From a virus: DNA of 45,329 bases. Below, piece after piece: positions 9,248-25,438 of this stretch. Position 1 is the first letter of the stretch. The number at the start of each line of letters is the position of its first letter. Location: IMG/VR virus record IMGVR_UViG_3300022542_000430; one strand, 5' to 3'. The translations under genes were made by a program, and so were the position numbers. The notes below the pieces were generated by a model. It made no database searches, had not been told where the DNA came from, and was given only the letters and a program-made list of their open reading frames with translations.

Positions 9248-9254
9248 AGTCAAG
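9248..9254 (-). promoter_or_regulatory. start-proximal box, variant CTTGACT
   Basis: Minus strand reads AAAACTTGACTAATG; 1 nt before ATG 9246. Confidence 0.4.
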
Positions 9255-9350
9255 TTTTAGAATTTACCCAACCCATAAACGCCAACAAAGACGAATATAG
9301 GCAGGGCTTTAAATTGTTTCGGGTGCAAAATTGCGCGTAGGTTTTAATGC

Positions 9351-9803
9351 TCATTTTAGGATACTTAAAAACAAAGTTTCAAATACTTTCTTATCGTTCT
9401 TTGCTGAAAGAAAATGATTTTCGGTTAAGTCTCCAATTGTATCGCTGTATTGGCAAATAGCTAAACCTAAGTGCATTTTTTGTTCCTCATATCCAAAGTG
9501 ATTTGTAAATACGTCTTCGTAGGTATCATAGTTGTTGATAGTTTCTTGCATATTGCTCTCTAAGGCAGTTTGCATTGACATTATTAAGTCATCTACATTA
9601 CTCTTTAGTTCCTTTATGTTTTTATCGTTAGATACATCATAATCTCCTACCTCGCATCTTCTTTCGTCTGGAACATCCACGTAAACCTCCAACCATTCAA
9701 ATTCGTTGTCAATGGCATCGATTTTATCGTTAAAATCTAAAGTAGTTAAGTATTCTGCTATACTGCAACCTAACCAAGCTTCAAATAGTGTTATTGGTGT
9801 CAT
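9351..9803 (-). CDS. hypothetical strongly acidic protein (150 aa)
   Basis: About 31 Asp/Glu versus about 12 Lys/Arg counted by eye; early operon. Confidence 0.6.
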   Translation of the reverse strand: MTPITLFEAWLGCSIAEYLTTLDFNDKIDAIDNEFEWLEVYVDVPDERRCEVGDYDVSNDKNIKELKSNVDDLIMSMQTALESNMQETINNYDTYEDVFTNHFGYEEQKMHLGLAICQYSDTIGDLTENHFLSAKNDKKVFETLFLSILK

Positions 9804-9806
9804 GTT

Positions 9807-10463
9807 TTATTTACGTTTAAAGAAAATATCTTGGTACAAAGACACAAACTCGAGCCAAGATTCAAAAATAGTGAGCGTGTAAAGGTTTCTGAATGATTCT
9901 AGTTTAAGCTTTTCTAATTCTGCTAAGTTGGTCATAAAAGCAGCTTCAAACAGGACAAAAGGCGAAGCTGTGTATTTTGTCATATAAAGCTTCTTATTTC
10001 TAACTCCTCTATTCTTTAAGCCCGTTGCTTTGGCGATGTTATTCAGGGCAATTTCAGCGAATAGCCGAGACTTTGAACCCTTGTTGATAAAAGCCCCTGT
10101 TCCATTCGCAGACTCAACACGGAACGCATCAGCGTGGAAGGACATACCAAAGCAAAGGCGGTCTTTATAGTTTTCATTATAAGCTTTCTTTTCTCTTATA
10201 ACCCTTCTATACATTGGCGTATCTTTGTGTTCTAGGCTTAGATTAGAAGAAGTGATGTCAATGCCCGTACTTTTAGCCAAACTACAAAGAATCCCCATTT
10301 TAGCTTCAATGCTTGTATTGAATGTATTCTCTCTTAGGCTACCATCTGTTGCCCGCTTGCCCTTTGTTTCCCAACCGTGACCGCTATCCAGTATCAAGTG
10401 CGTAGGTGTATGGATAAGGTGTTTATAGTGCTGTAAAGTTTTTGAAAAGTCTTTTAATTTCAT
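9807..10463 (-). CDS. N-acetylmuramoyl-L-alanine amidase (Amidase_3-type endolysin)
   Basis: Motifs LDSGHG, SFHADA, GTGAF, NRGV and EAAFMTN match the zinc amidase family 3 signature order. Confidence 0.8.
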   Translation of the reverse strand: MKLKDFSKTLQHYKHLIHTPTHLILDSGHGWETKGKRATDGSLRENTFNTSIEAKMGILCSLAKSTGIDITSSNLSLEHKDTPMYRRVIREKKAYNENYKDRLCFGMSFHADAFRVESANGTGAFINKGSKSRLFAEIALNNIAKATGLKNRGVRNKKLYMTKYTASPFVLFEAAFMTNLAELEKLKLESFRNLYTLTIFESWLEFVSLYQDIFFKRK

Positions 10464-10465
10464 TG

Positions 10466-11344
10466 TTAAAGTTTGTTAGCTTCTATAAGAATATAAGAGT
10501 TTACTTTAATTAGTAATTTTTCAATATTTGCCATAATTATATTACCTTCCTTTGTACTTAATTTAGGCTTTTTAAATTCAGACTTAATTACTTCTGCAAA
10601 TTGTAACAACTTTGCTTTGTCGGGTGCTGCTGCTGCTTTGGCCTTTTCAACTAATAGCAGTCTTTTTTCTTCTAGTCTGGCTTCTTCCTTTTTAGCAGCA
10701 GCCTTTTTTAATTTATCGTTCTCTGCTTGTAGTTTTTTACGTTCTTTTTCTTTGGCAATATCCTCTAGTCGTTTAGCTTCTATTCGATTTTCTTCTTCAA
10801 TCCGTTCTTGCTCTAATCTCAAAGCTTCCTTCTTTTCAGCTTCCTTTTTAGCTTCAAAAGTTTGTATTGTGCCAATTAAAAAGCTATTCCAAATAGAAAC
10901 ATCCATATCCCCAAGATTCAAAGGAATTACTTCTACTTCGTATTGTTCTAATTGTGATTCTCTCTCTATTTGAAGTTCTTTAATTTTCTCCTTTTCGATA
11001 TTCTCATAATATTTTTCAATAGTAGATAGCTTTTCCTCTATTCCTTGGGATGCCATTAATTGAGCGTTCTTCCAACCATCGACAAAACGTCCACCTTTCA
11101 AGTAAAAAGACTTCAATTCCTTATGTATTGCTGATGTTCCCGTTCGAACTTTTACATACTTTAATCTTAATGTTTTTGCTTGTTTACAAACGTCTTTAGT
11201 AAATGGTAGCTTTTGTAATTCGTTAAACTCCTTTTCTAAATTTACCATTTCTTCCAACATTGGCACAAACATCTTTGAAATATCTGCCGCTTTAGTTTCT
11301 TCTAATCCGTATTGTTCGTGGTCTACTTTAATTAAGTTACTCAT
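10466..11344 (-). CDS. hypothetical coiled-coil protein (292 aa) in recombination module
   Basis: Start reassigned to ATG 11344, because the track TTG at 11350 is part of the CTTGACA box; Lys/Glu/Ala-rich coiled-coil centre. Confidence 0.6.
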   Translation of the reverse strand: MSNLIKVDHEQYGLEETKAADISKMFVPMLEEMVNLEKEFNELQKLPFTKDVCKQAKTLRLKYVKVRTGTSAIHKELKSFYLKGGRFVDGWKNAQLMASQGIEEKLSTIEKYYENIEKEKIKELQIERESQLEQYEVEVIPLNLGDMDVSIWNSFLIGTIQTFEAKKEAEKKEALRLEQERIEEENRIEAKRLEDIAKEKERKKLQAENDKLKKAAAKKEEARLEEKRLLLVEKAKAAAAPDKAKLLQFAEVIKSEFKKPKLSTKEGNIIMANIEKLLIKVNSYILIEANKL

Positions 11345-11351
11345 TGTCAAG
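11345..11351 (-). promoter_or_regulatory. start-proximal CTTGACA box
   Basis: Minus strand reads AAAAAACTTGACAATG; 0 nt before ATG 11344. Confidence 0.55.
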
Positions 11352-11355
11352 TTTT

Positions 11356-11805
11356 TTAATGTTTATTATCGTGAGTTAAATTTTGTAATCTTTTTTTATC
11401 CTCCTTTTCAAAGCTTATTCTTTGTTGGCAAGCAGATAGAACTTTGTTTAATTGCCTTAATTGGAGACTAATTATGTAGCTCATTTTCTCCTCTTCAATT
11501 TCTATCCTTCTATTTTCCTCGTTTGCTAGTTCTGCTTTTTCTTCTGCTTTAGCTGCTGTGTCACCGTTGCCTATATGGTAGAGTTTTTTAATGCTGTGGT
11601 TGTGCTTTCGCTCAAAGTAAGCAGTTAGATAGGATGCTTTACAATCTCCTGTTATTTTGCCTATATTCGTACTTAATAGGCTAAGTTTATCTTGAAAATC
11701 AAGGAGCTGCAATATGCTTGCTTTGTCTGCATTCTTTTCGTACCAATCTAGTAAGACATTTACCATGCTTATAACCTCTAAGTCATTCTTATTTAGTTGT
11801 ATCAT
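11356..11805 (-). CDS. hypothetical protein
   Basis: 149-aa ORF in the leftward operon. Confidence 0.55.
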   Translation of the reverse strand: MIQLNKNDLEVISMVNVLLDWYEKNADKASILQLLDFQDKLSLLSTNIGKITGDCKASYLTAYFERKHNHSIKKLYHIGNGDTAAKAEEKAELANEENRRIEIEEEKMSYIISLQLRQLNKVLSACQQRISFEKEDKKRLQNLTHDNKH

Positions 11806-12067
11806 CCTTACTTTTATTTAACTCTTCGTAAGAAATAAGGCATTTGTCGTAAAGAACATCATCATAGGTAGCGGATCCAATAGCTATCCCCTCATTAATT
11901 TCAAACTCCAAAACCTCGTTATCCTCAAACTCTTTGAGTGTTAATGTGGTTTCTTGCTTCGGTTCTTCTGTTGATTCAATTAGGGGCTGGCTTATATTCT
12001 CGTTAAACCAAGATATATGTTTGACCCTGTTTAGTTCTGTTGAGCATTGCCCGTTAGGTAGTTTCAT
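11789..12067 (-). CDS. hypothetical protein
   Basis: 92-aa ORF; its start overlaps the erf stop codon by 1 nt. Confidence 0.5.
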   Translation of the reverse strand: MKLPNGQCSTELNRVKHISWFNENISQPLIESTEEPKQETTLTLKEFEDNEVLEFEINEGIAIGSATYDDVLYDKCLISYEELNKSKDDTTK

Positions 12068-24707: not shown

Positions 24708-24724
24708 TTTTTAAATTATTAACT

Positions 24725-24874
24725 TTAATCGTCTAAGGTTTCTGTATTTAATGGTCTTTCAAAAGTTGGCAACAAAAAAGAATATATAAAAGCAAAGGGC
24801 AGTACAATAACTAAAACAATAGGAAGCAAAATACCCATAGTAATAGCTAGAATCTTATATTGCATATCTTCCAT
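24725..24874 (-). CDS. small membrane protein (49 aa), absent from the ORF track
   Basis: Hand translation MEDMQYKILAITMGILLPIVLVIVLPFAFIYSFLLPTFERPLNTETLDD; preceded by the CTTGACA box. Confidence 0.5.
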   Translation of the reverse strand: MEDMQYKILAITMGILLPIVLVIVLPFAFIYSFLLPTFERPLNTETLDD

Positions 24875-24876
24875 TT

Positions 24877-24883
24877 TGTCAAG
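24877..24883 (-). promoter_or_regulatory. start-proximal CTTGACA box
   Basis: Minus strand reads ATAATAATTAAAAACTTGACAAAATG; 2 nt before ATG 24874. Confidence 0.55.
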
Positions 24884-24914
24884 TTTTTAATTATTATGAA
24901 TAGTACTGAGTAGT

Positions 24915-25139
24915 TTATTCCGTAGGTTTAAGCGTTATTGTAACTTCATTGTTTCCATCATCTTTCCAATCGTAATGTTTTTGAAAAACAAAAGTCTTTC
25001 CATGTAAATCATGAAGCCCTCTAAGCATATGAAAGCTATCTAAAATCCCCTTTAGGTCTAATAAAAACAAATCTACATTGTCAGGATTCGTGGCGTTTAC
25101 CATATCTGTAAATGTTTCAATCTTAAATTCTTTGTTCAT
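24915..25139 (-). CDS. hypothetical protein
   Basis: 74-aa ORF preceded by the CTTGACA box. Confidence 0.55.
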   Translation of the reverse strand: MNKEFKIETFTDMVNATNPDNVDLFLLDLKGILDSFHMLRGLHDLHGKTFVFQKHYDWKDDGNNEVTITLKPTE

Positions 25140-25141
25140 TT

Positions 25142-25148
25142 TGTCAAG
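25142..25148 (-). promoter_or_regulatory. start-proximal CTTGACA box overlapping the upstream gene's TGA stop
   Basis: Minus strand reads AAAAACTTGACAAAATG; 2 nt before ATG 25139; the TGA of gene 25144..25425 lies inside the box. Confidence 0.55.
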
Positions 25149-25425
25149 TTTTTGTATTAGGTAAAAACGTTAATTGCTTCATGTACCCACGATAAAGGCA
25201 GTTGTGTAAGTAGTATACTTCTTTTCTCGTTAGTTTTAATTCTGTTTTTATTTTAATTAGTTTTTCTTCTTTTTTATGGACAGTTATTAAAATAACACTC
25301 TTGAATTTAAAGATAATTAGGTCAGTAGTATCAGCTAAAGATAATGTGATGCTAATATCCTCATAGTTTCTTAATATGTCAAGCCCTAACTCTGTAACCT
25401 CTTTTGATTTTATTCTCCAAAACAT
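25144..25425 (-). CDS. hypothetical protein, first gene of leftward operon
   Basis: Start moved to ATG 25425 (MFWRIKS); the track TTG at 25437 belongs to the CTTGACA box. Confidence 0.55.
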   Translation of the reverse strand: MFWRIKSKEVTELGLDILRNYEDISITLSLADTTDLIIFKFKSVILITVHKKEEKLIKIKTELKLTRKEVYYLHNCLYRGYMKQLTFLPNTKT

Positions 25426-25431
25426 ATTTTT

Positions 25432-25438
25432 TGTCAAG
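25432..25438 (-). promoter_or_regulatory. start-proximal CTTGACA box
   Basis: Minus strand reads TTATTAAAACTTGACAAAAAATATG; 6 nt before ATG 25425; the only promoter-like element upstream of this operon. Confidence 0.5.

Follow-up and report, generated by a model that had tools for sequence, protein, structure and literature searches.

The 45,329-nucleotide (nt) virus record IMGVR_UViG_3300022542_000430 from IMG/VR, analysed at full length and called the window here, is a 45.3-kb phage genome with a G+C content of 35%. Directly ahead of the start codons of twelve of its genes stands a short sequence built around CTTGACA, which we call the box, and the core of this box, ACUUGACA, has its exact reverse complement, UGUCAAGU, in the loop of an intrinsic terminator hairpin at the end of the late operon (Table 1). 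In related phages both the box and the loop have other sequences, and there too they are complementary to one another. We propose, giving the idea about an even chance of being right, that the boxes are mRNA targets of a phage antisense RNA which would carry the terminator loop and block the start regions. The fuller scheme, a private tag/anti-tag translation switch in which the late-terminator loop would act as master antisense and tag and loop would have been re-coded jointly in relatives, we put forward slightly more tentatively.

A box in register with start codons

Exact copies of CTTGACA lie directly ahead of nine same-strand ATGs, opening reading frames (ORFs) of 49-395 amino acids (aa), and the gap to the ATG is 2 nt in seven of them, with 0 nt at 11344 (minus strand) and 6 nt at 25425 (minus strand) as the two others. 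Copies with one mismatch precede the ATGs at 9246 and 12720 (both minus strand, the latter being Erf) and at 41389. An earlier reading of this DNA, made without database searches (the sequence-only reading), had listed all of these boxes, and we recovered the same coordinates and gaps, each box on the strand of its gene (12/12), and the overlap it had described with a TGA stop at 25144-25146, which is that of the upstream ORF and lies within the box at 25142-25152. Counting both strands, the window holds 18 copies of CTTGACA compared with 5.25 +/- 2.3 in dinucleotide-preserving shuffles, in agreement with the earlier composition estimate of about five, and none of 100 shuffles reached 18. A sharper motif, AAAACTTGA, occurs 12 times where 1.68 copies are expected (0/100 shuffles reach 12), and every one of these lies 2-8 nt ahead of the ATG of a real ORF, on the gene strand. 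As just ~1.4% of window positions lie <=24 nt upstream of a called start, this placement of 12/12 copies is not due to chance.

The box is sharply delimited. Copies of AAAACTTGAYA with one or two mismatches number 62 against 68.9 expected, which is background, and the box class is therefore all-or-none. Information content is confined to the ~11-nt core and the ATG, with all positions from -45 to -1 relative to the core at <=0.5 bit, and some box pairs are alike over 23-36 nt at 72-96% identity. The common form, AAAACTTGACA, contains no Shine-Dalgarno (SD) sequence, as had been remarked before. Local RNA structure does not set the boxes apart, since their accessibility is the same as that of other starts (0.62 vs 0.63, P 0.70), and Rfam gave no family match at them.

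Many boxes are squeezed between genes. Four occupy stop-to-start gaps of 4-11 nt, where the upstream stop overlaps the box or its A-tract; those at 11344 and 12720 (minus strand) and at 41389 span gaps of 10-11 nt, the upstream TAA entering the A-tract. Tagged in this way are four consecutive genes heading the leftward early operon, among them a 395-aa protein with weak transmembrane-family matches at best, three small early genes on the right arm, an HNH endonuclease gene, and the genes for Erf, a 292-aa protein, a 92-aa protein and one virion protein. The sequence-only reading had placed all boxes but one in early regions. Most boxed genes are non-structural (11/12 starts lie outside the structural module), but the set is not exclusively early: it includes virion gene 41389 and genes of the amidase-endolysin operon.

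A 19-nt extended box was searched in 185,579 reference genomes and gave 85 single hits over all phyla, with no genome containing several. Likewise, among the matches listed for IMG/VR and for metagenome contigs there was scattered single-copy background and no multi-copy locus, and many of the database matches fall inside ORFs (encoding K-K-L-D-K-M). Because these matches are single and scattered over phyla, and never clustered, the searches indicate that the box is not a host signal.

The loop of the late-operon terminator is complementary to the box

The hairpin reads AGCCCCUCAGU-UGUCAAGU-ACUGAGGGGCU, followed by UUUUGUGUUU, and its loop at 8627-8634, UGUCAAGU, reads on the opposite strand as a CTTGACA copy, one of the nine located away from starts. 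The U-tract (8646-8655) is present on the plus strand only. This is the strongest terminator-like hairpin in the window (minimum free energy -23 kcal/mol, z -4.4) and the sole one whose loop complement recurs before starts; Rfam gave no family match here either. Predicted duplexes between the loop and the twelve boxed starts range from -8.7 to -11.6 kcal/mol, compared with -6.7 kcal/mol for the next best start and a median of -3.3 kcal/mol over 71 starts. In the variant boxes at 12720 (minus strand) and 41389, both CTTGATA, the change is C to U and loop pairing is kept as G.U, while in the third variant box the mismatch is solely at the duplex end. What is looked for in an antisense RNA, a loop complementary to the initiation regions of its targets, is thus found in a hairpin that is supported by folding, UGUCAAGU matching ACUUGACA at 12 starts.

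The sequence TAAATTTG at 8591-8598 on the plus strand, which overlaps the stop of gene 8330-8593, is a perfect host -7 consensus. With the hairpin 17 nt further on, it could drive a small RNA of its own, and we mention it as a speculative promoter for an RNA of ~50 nt. One relative has TAATTTGT 9 nt before its hairpin (locus L356, described below), and another (L381) has no such box. Separately, on the minus strand at 23386-23440, inside gene 23230-23514, TTGACAAAAAATGTCAAGACAAAAAATG consists of box-like TTGACAAAAAATG followed by the anti-box sequence TGTCAAG.

Box and loop change together in related phages

A search with the large terminase subunit, TerL, returned the window itself and relatives at 80% (Ga0216253_10001047), 73% (ZHAN22-2 scaffold_262, loci L349 and L356), 59% (L351, which like L381 is from sample SRR31655984), 58% (L350, DRR671434_11352) and 57% identity (L352, SRR22746113_177070). 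The contigs of these relatives are syntenic with the window, including the leftward early operon with its ~400-aa protein; the terminator regions in L356 and L381 were reached through homologs of a 500-aa virion protein.

ZHAN22-2 scaffold_262 has no CTTGACA box. It carries AAAACTAC(T)A instead, with TAAAAACTAC(T)A 4-8 nt ahead of six starts, and AAACTACT occurs there in 8 copies over 35.6 kb, five of them before starts. In L351 the sequence AAAACTACAAAAA(AA)ATG is found at three starts. The homologous terminator in L356 reads GCCCGUAGGA-UUUUAGUAGUU-UCCUACGGGC and then GUUUUAUGUU, and its loop, UUUUAGUAGUU, complements AACUACUAAAA, an 11/11 match to the box of that phage's 408-aa gene. In L381 the terminator is GCCCCACCG-UUGUAGUUUU-CGGUGGGGC followed by GUUUUUGUU, and the loop UUGUAGUUUU, whose reverse complement is AAAACTACAA, is complementary to AAAACUACAA, which is the L351 box. 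The hairpins of the window, L356 and L381 have flanking sequence in common, and in 3/3 lineages the anti-box is on the late-operon strand, with the U-tract after it on that strand only. Loop and box therefore co-vary over three lineages, each loop being complementary to its own box, where L351 and L381 are taken together as one sample.

Orthologous genes retain the box in its place. Three phages have a box, each of its own type, at the 395-aa gene (window 24698, L349 7103, L351 5593); the ortholog of window gene 22073, L351 gene 840, has L351's own box; and an Erf ortholog at 81% identity has TTTAAAATCAACCAAAATG in place of the window's TTTAAAACTTGATACAATG. In the related phages, which the sequence-only reading had advised to search for the same register, the position is thus retained and the sequence is not, ZHAN22-2 being without the CTTGACA box.

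In two further relatives other sequences lie close to starts, AAACGATAAAyTATG twice in L350 (3400-4105) and the T-rich TATTTTTT(TT)ATG three times in L352 (1489-3429). Start tags that differ from lineage to lineage may be widespread among these phages. Another 22 IMG/VR loci, together with L357 and L358, were reached via the 500-aa virion protein and are too distant; no box-loop system was seen in them.

Controls for the loop-box match

The match between loops and starts was assessed with an enrichment-based score; counts of upstream windows matched get inflated by A-rich 7-mers. For length-matched random loops, the chance (P) of scoring as high at starts as the real loop is ~0.001 in the window, 0.004-0.045 in ZHAN22-2 and 0.006-0.034 in SRR31655984. 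When loops and genomes were swapped, the window loop scored 0 on both relatives and the SRR31655984 loop scored 0 on the window, while the ZHAN22-2 loop scored 3.1 on the window (4 starts, via A-rich 7-mers) compared with 15.1 for the window's own loop. The loops of ZHAN22-2 and SRR31655984, whose boxes belong to one CTAC family, give 3.0 and 8.3 when exchanged between the two, in line with their common box.

Among 61 unrelated hairpins matching AGTTTAGCCCC...GGGGC, none (0/61) had a loop complement ahead of at least two starts, and an IMG/VR pattern search for the terminator family returned at least 119 mostly unrelated hairpins and no further loop-box pair. A stricter screen of all hairpins in loci >=6 kb flagged the window hairpin; otherwise it gave a low-complexity sense match, CTAAAAA (3 starts), and five matches at two starts.

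A candidate antisense circuit and the points that weigh against it

The sequence-only reading had offered, as its alternative to a promoter, an RNA-level site of the kind used by T4 RegA and RegB, and the anatomy of the boxes agrees with this. Since the complementary terminator loop co-varies with the box in relatives, the effector is likely to be RNA and not a RegA-like protein. In the circuit we envisage, late transcripts, or a stable 3' fragment or small RNA ending at the hairpin, would display 5'-UGUCAAGU-3' in the 8-nt loop, and its pairing with ACUUGACA would cover roughly positions -10 to -3 in each of twelve mRNAs. In the Bacteroidota host, which does not use SD pairing, initiation relies on unpaired A-rich sequence just before the AUG, and a duplex at this place would block 30S binding and perhaps hasten mRNA decay. 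As late transcription rises, the tagged and mostly early or non-structural genes would be translated less. Expression of the RNA, its pairing in vivo, repression as the effect and the timing of these events are what we infer from the arrangement. Terminator loops can matter for regulation by small RNAs (sRNAs) in E. coli (PMC11979758).

Several points weigh against this circuit. A stable loop-carrying RNA that meets its targets is so far predicted. Pairing of loop and box in the window spans 8 nt only, and the invariant AAAA of the box falls outside the loop complement and needs a separate cause, for instance a general need for an A-rich start region. Targets include a late virion gene and genes of the endolysin operon, so a simple early shut-off is ill-fitting. 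Regarding the relatives, L351 and L381 are from one sample and their origin from a single genome is unproven, and the ZHAN22-2 and SRR31655984 lineages are not fully independent because both are in the CTAC family. Given the A-richness of the sequence, ~10 candidate hairpins and the common ancestry of the two CTAC lineages, the combined chance P is roughly 1e-3 to 1e-6, which is good but not overwhelming. In a further phage, L353 (SRR22302367_12206; Erf 68%), the loop AGUAAUCAA of the homologous late-operon terminator (6023-6062, late strand) matches a local motif, TTAAAATCAAATAA, over only 6 nt and in the sense orientation, and this motif stands ahead of Erf and of the ortholog of window gene 10466-11344; the comparison rests on a part of the 47-kb contig without conserved target genes, and the match is either chance or a case at odds with antisense pairing. 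Finally, the complementary strand of the window hairpin bears a sense copy of the box, for which reason a protein that reads the box is the main rival.

We also considered a guide-RNA-type reading, which was rejected: the complement in the terminator loop is 8-11 nt, and no Cas12f-like protein is present among the ~45 window proteins that were scanned with Pfam and PHROGs.

Other explanations of the boxes

That main rival holds that a RegA-like repressor or activator, of phage or host, reads the single-stranded box, the minus-strand loop copy ACUUGACA being a decoy, an autoregulatory site or a stabiliser; we think this unlikely, though a serious contender. Sense-strand sites, AUG register and operon-internal copies would be the same anatomy as under antisense pairing, the hairpin's minus strand shows the box in its loop in 3/3 lineages, in L353 the likeness between loop and start motif is likewise one of sense sequence, and the invariant AAAA would suit an extended protein site. 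T4 RegA, a translational repressor, and RegB, an endoribonuclease, exert such post-transcriptional control over many early mRNAs at the initiation region. However, the window's loop copy is without the AAAA, the boxes at starts are outside hairpins whereas the loop copy is inside one, and the U-tract is solely on the anti-box strand. Furthermore, a switch of box type would demand joint changes in the protein, in every box and in the loop, while RNA pairing can do without a third partner. Among the ~45 scanned proteins there was no RNA-binding or regulator domain, including any of RegA/RegB type. RegA and RegB are moreover proteins with loose or SD-based sites, whereas the site here is exact and its apparent partner is RNA.

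The sequence-only reading had favoured the box as a phage-specific variant of the -7 promoter element, from which many small early units would start at or beside the AUG as leaderless mRNAs; the host's RNA polymerase would recognise such an element together with a phage factor. We consider this very unlikely. The geometry does fit: wherever the gap is 2 nt (seven copies), transcription would begin at position -1 or +1 of the AUG, as counted from the G of CTTG. Many early genes of T4 have their own promoters. In Flavobacterium the sigmaA box, TAnnTTTG, spans -12 to -5, and leaderless transcripts make up 5.5% of mRNAs (PMC9723704); the TTG of the phage box has the spacing to the AUG that a near-leaderless transcript would require. 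Sequence and context do not fit: the 8-mer ending at the box G is AAAACTTG in 12/12 copies, in which the conserved T of TA is missing and C replaces the first T of TTTG, and the boxes consequently fail as sigmaA -7 elements, whether of the TAnnTTTG form or of the SM5 variant TAnnTTGY. Nor do they resemble operon-head promoters with a -33 TTG, given their operon-internal copies and <=0.5 bit upstream; four lie in stop-to-start gaps of <=11 nt and one lies within the late structural operon. The spacing varies over 0-6 nt, and the 0-nt copy would start inside the ATG and lose the AUG. In relatives the orthologous genes carry AAAACTAC and similar boxes without TTG, and the co-varying terminator loop would be left unexplained. 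Ordinary promoters appear to serve the operon heads, as host-type -7 boxes are present at 13233 (plus strand), 13150 (minus strand) and 25485 (plus strand); consensus promoters of this type stand at 3/4 early and late operon heads, and TAnnTTTG is also found at 8297 (plus strand). Upstream of the leftward operon at 25425 no TAnnTTTG was found, in line with the earlier remark that nothing else promoter-like precedes it, and this is a point in favour of a promoter function. Taken together, the leaderless-promoter reading is not supported. A sigma-70 reading with TTGACA as -35 was tried as well and rejected, a -10 at 16-18 nt being no commoner than chance (73 vs 68 expected).

A translational enhancer acting in cis, which the ribosome of the host would recognise in place of SD, would account for the position of the box, for its 0-6-nt spacing tolerance, which resembles that of a ribosome-binding site, and for A-rich surroundings like those at other Bacteroidota starts. 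The gene 10 epsilon sequence of T7, UUAACUUUA, is such an enhancer, and the weak variants AAACTTTAACAATG and AAAACTTAATAAAAATG resemble it. A signal read by the ribosome should recur in similar-host phages and in host genes, yet none of the 185,579 reference genomes is enriched for the extended box, different sequences are in use in close relatives (even at the Erf ortholog with 81% identity), and the loop match has no explanation; we find an enhancer very improbable.

Only a slim chance is left to an asymmetric operator in DNA to which a phage repressor would bind. The boxes do recall the stoperators of mycobacteriophage L5, which follow the direction of transcription and halt elongation: they are many and asymmetric, point with transcription on each arm and frequently lie where genes meet. 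A DNA roadblock would not be expected to keep a fixed ATG register, as the boxes do (a 2-nt gap to the ATG in 7/9 exact CTTGACA copies), neither a repressor nor an integrase was identified in the window, and the location of the co-varying copy within a hairpin loop suggests that the sequence is read as a single strand. Hardly credible, lastly, are non-regulatory junctions of recombinational cassette shuffling (PeSL-like, as in T4-type phages) or duplication remnants, which the Erf gene, the flanking of small accessory genes and the HNH endonuclease gene, and the longer likeness of some box pairs would favour: conservation drops sharply beyond ~11 nt, near-copies are absent, orthologous genes keep the box position and swap its sequence, and the loop complement is again unexplained.

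Genome layout and further features

The phage host is a member of the Bacteroidota, and its family is probably Flavobacteriaceae, as judged from the portal protein, which has 33% identity to portals of Flavobacterium, Croceibacter and Bacteroides phages, from proteins annotated from Flavobacteriaceae among the TerL relatives, and from the A-rich, SD-less regions upstream of most window genes. Most small ORFs had no match in the Pfam and PHROGs scan. Close relatives were not found by megablast of 12-kb and 17-kb window pieces against GenBank phages, tblastn of the 395-aa protein against GenBank phages gave no match, and IMG/VR searches with DnaB and TerL peptides gave no relatives, or only boxless ones at 35-38% identity.

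Table 1. Coordinates of the boxes, the anti-box hairpin, host-type -7 boxes and operons in the window; duplex energies are predicted values for pairing with the hairpin loop.
Feature	Position	Strand	Details
Anti-box hairpin	8616..8645	+	Intrinsic terminator of rightward late operon; 11-bp stem, 8-nt loop
Box variant AAAACTTGACT	9248..9258	-	1 nt before ATG 9246 (92 aa, no assigned function); duplex -9.5 kcal/mol
Box AAAACTTGACA	11345..11355	-	0 nt before ATG 11344 (292 aa); fills 11-nt stop-to-start gap
Box variant AAAACTTGATA	12723..12733	-	2 nt before ATG 12720 (Erf); duplex -8.7 kcal/mol
Box	13943..13953	+	2 nt before ATG 13956 (54 aa); duplex -11.6 kcal/mol
Box	14152..14162	+	2 nt before ATG 14165 (156 aa, Imm5-like)
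Box	15998..16008	+	2 nt before ATG 16011 (HNH/NUMOD4 endonuclease)
Box	22060..22070	+	2 nt before ATG 22073 (90 aa)
Box	24701..24711	-	2 nt before ATG 24698 (395 aa)
Box	24877..24887	-	2 nt before ATG 24874 (49 aa)
Box	25142..25152	-	2 nt before ATG 25139 (74 aa); includes TGA stop of upstream ORF
Box	25432..25442	-	6 nt before ATG 25425 (93 aa), first gene of leftward early operon
Box variant AAAACTTGATA	41377..41387	+	1 nt before ATG 41389 (virion structural protein); duplex -9.4 kcal/mol
Host-type -7 box TATCTTTG	13233..13240	+	Heads rightward early operon; outside the box system
Host-type -7 box TATATTTG	13143..13150	-	Heads leftward operon 13106 to 8662
Host-type -7 box TAACTTTG	25485..25492	+	Ahead of gene 25541
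Rightward late operon	~27 kb through contig end to 8593	+	Small and large terminase, portal, virion proteins
Leftward operon	13106 to 8662	-	Includes Erf (12067-12720) and amidase (9807-10463)
Rightward early/replication operon	Head 13269	+	RusA, HNH, DnaD-like, DnaB, methyltransferase
Leftward early operon	25425 to 23016	-	

Two of the boxed genes have features of their own. The Imm5-like gene (14165-14635) contains a tandem 9-nt repeat, CTTCTGCGG, in ~9 copies at 14487-14576, and the HNH/NUMOD4 gene at 16011-16641 resembles an autonomous insertion, with a separate box in front of it and a separate hairpin and T-run (16623-16641) behind.

Elsewhere in the window there are two paralogous leader units of ~200 nt each (17040-17265 and 18195-18440) that share an identical 27-mer, ATAATTATTCGTATATTGTGGAACGGC (17060-17086 and 18214-18240), with a -7 box of the TAnnTTGY type. 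The 27-mer is followed by a long hairpin (17141-17176/17223-17258 and 18328-18349/18390-18411), then by a T8 run and GTTTAAwTTkAAmTTATG, and no Rfam family matched either unit. They look like a promoter plus attenuator or terminator leader ahead of ATG 17259 and ATG 18432, and the DnaD-like gene probably starts at 18432 rather than at 18330. Within this initiator gene, 11-nt iteron-like repeats (AGCAACAAGCG, GATAACAAACC and ATCAACAAGCG) at 18751-18816 may mark a possible replication origin. A tRNA-Cys (GCA) was found at 26884-26955 by both ARAGORN and Rfam, and a tRNA-like match at 25779-25852 (36.7 bits) by Rfam alone.

Comparison with known systems

With a complementary terminator loop as the candidate partner of start boxes, we regard the proposed arrangement as a variant of antisense control. 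In Staphylococcus aureus, RNAIII and the Rsa sRNAs have C-rich hairpin loops, including that of the 3' terminator hairpin of RNAIII, which pair with the ribosome-binding sites of several mRNAs and so repress their translation. The anti-box is similar in presenting a hairpin-loop seed against the initiation regions of an mRNA regulon, here a predicted one. However, RNAIII targets the universal SD, whereas the anti-box would target a private phage tag, with tag and loop co-varying, and the anti-box RNA would be the end of an operon transcript and no known dedicated sRNA. Phage RNAs that act on phage mRNAs by short complementarity are familiar from c4 of P1 and P7, the CI RNA of P4, sar of P22 and OOP of lambda, and the c4 and CI RNAs recognise repeated short target sites. 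These have one or two immunity-linked targets; the phage here has twelve candidate targets, all aligned with start codons, and its candidate seed lies in the loop of a late terminator.

Hfq-type chaperones are, to our knowledge, absent from Bacteroidota. In E. coli, the intrinsic-terminator loops of the sRNAs SdsR, RseX and ArrS determine regulation of an mRNA, likely with no base pairing and by way of one 5' untranslated region structure, Hfq and RNase E (PMC11979758), whereas in the window the complementarity is exact and the starts are many. If our proposal is true, a Bacteroidota phage would use a terminator loop as an antisense seed against many targets, and the circuit would be among very few post-transcriptional ones described for phages of this phylum, which is without SD pairing. 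Joint re-coding of tag and loop would then also stop co-infecting relatives from cross-regulating, and a short tag/loop pair that can be re-coded is a possible orthogonal part for translation control in Bacteroidota genetics.

The closest likeness is to the start-associated sequences (SAS) of Cluster K mycobacteriophages, which were described in 2011 (Pope et al., PMC3203893) and for which no mechanism has been found since. SAS are short asymmetric repeats, present in 11-19 copies per genome a few nt before starts, in one orientation, mostly at non-structural genes, sometimes overlapping the upstream stop and absent from the host genome, and they accompany different gene families in different phages (PMC3203893). 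The box is likewise an asymmetric multi-copy repeat in one orientation next to starts (12/12, of which 11/12 non-structural), and is similarly rare in host genomes, as far as this can be read from 85 single hits of the 19-mer in 185,579 genomes. The SAS consensus, GGGATAGGAGCCC, in contrast, contains an SD core, is found in phages of an actinobacterial host and often comes with an inverted-repeat ESAS, while the box, AAAACTTGACA, is SD-less. As it has no SD core and belongs to a Bacteroidota-type phage lineage, the box is best described as an analogue of SAS and not a member. Unlike SAS, for which none is reported, it has a candidate complementary partner in trans, the terminator loop, and this co-varying partner turns an unexplained start motif into a hypothesis that can be tested by compensatory mutation; if true, it would give start-associated-sequence systems their first proposed mechanism.

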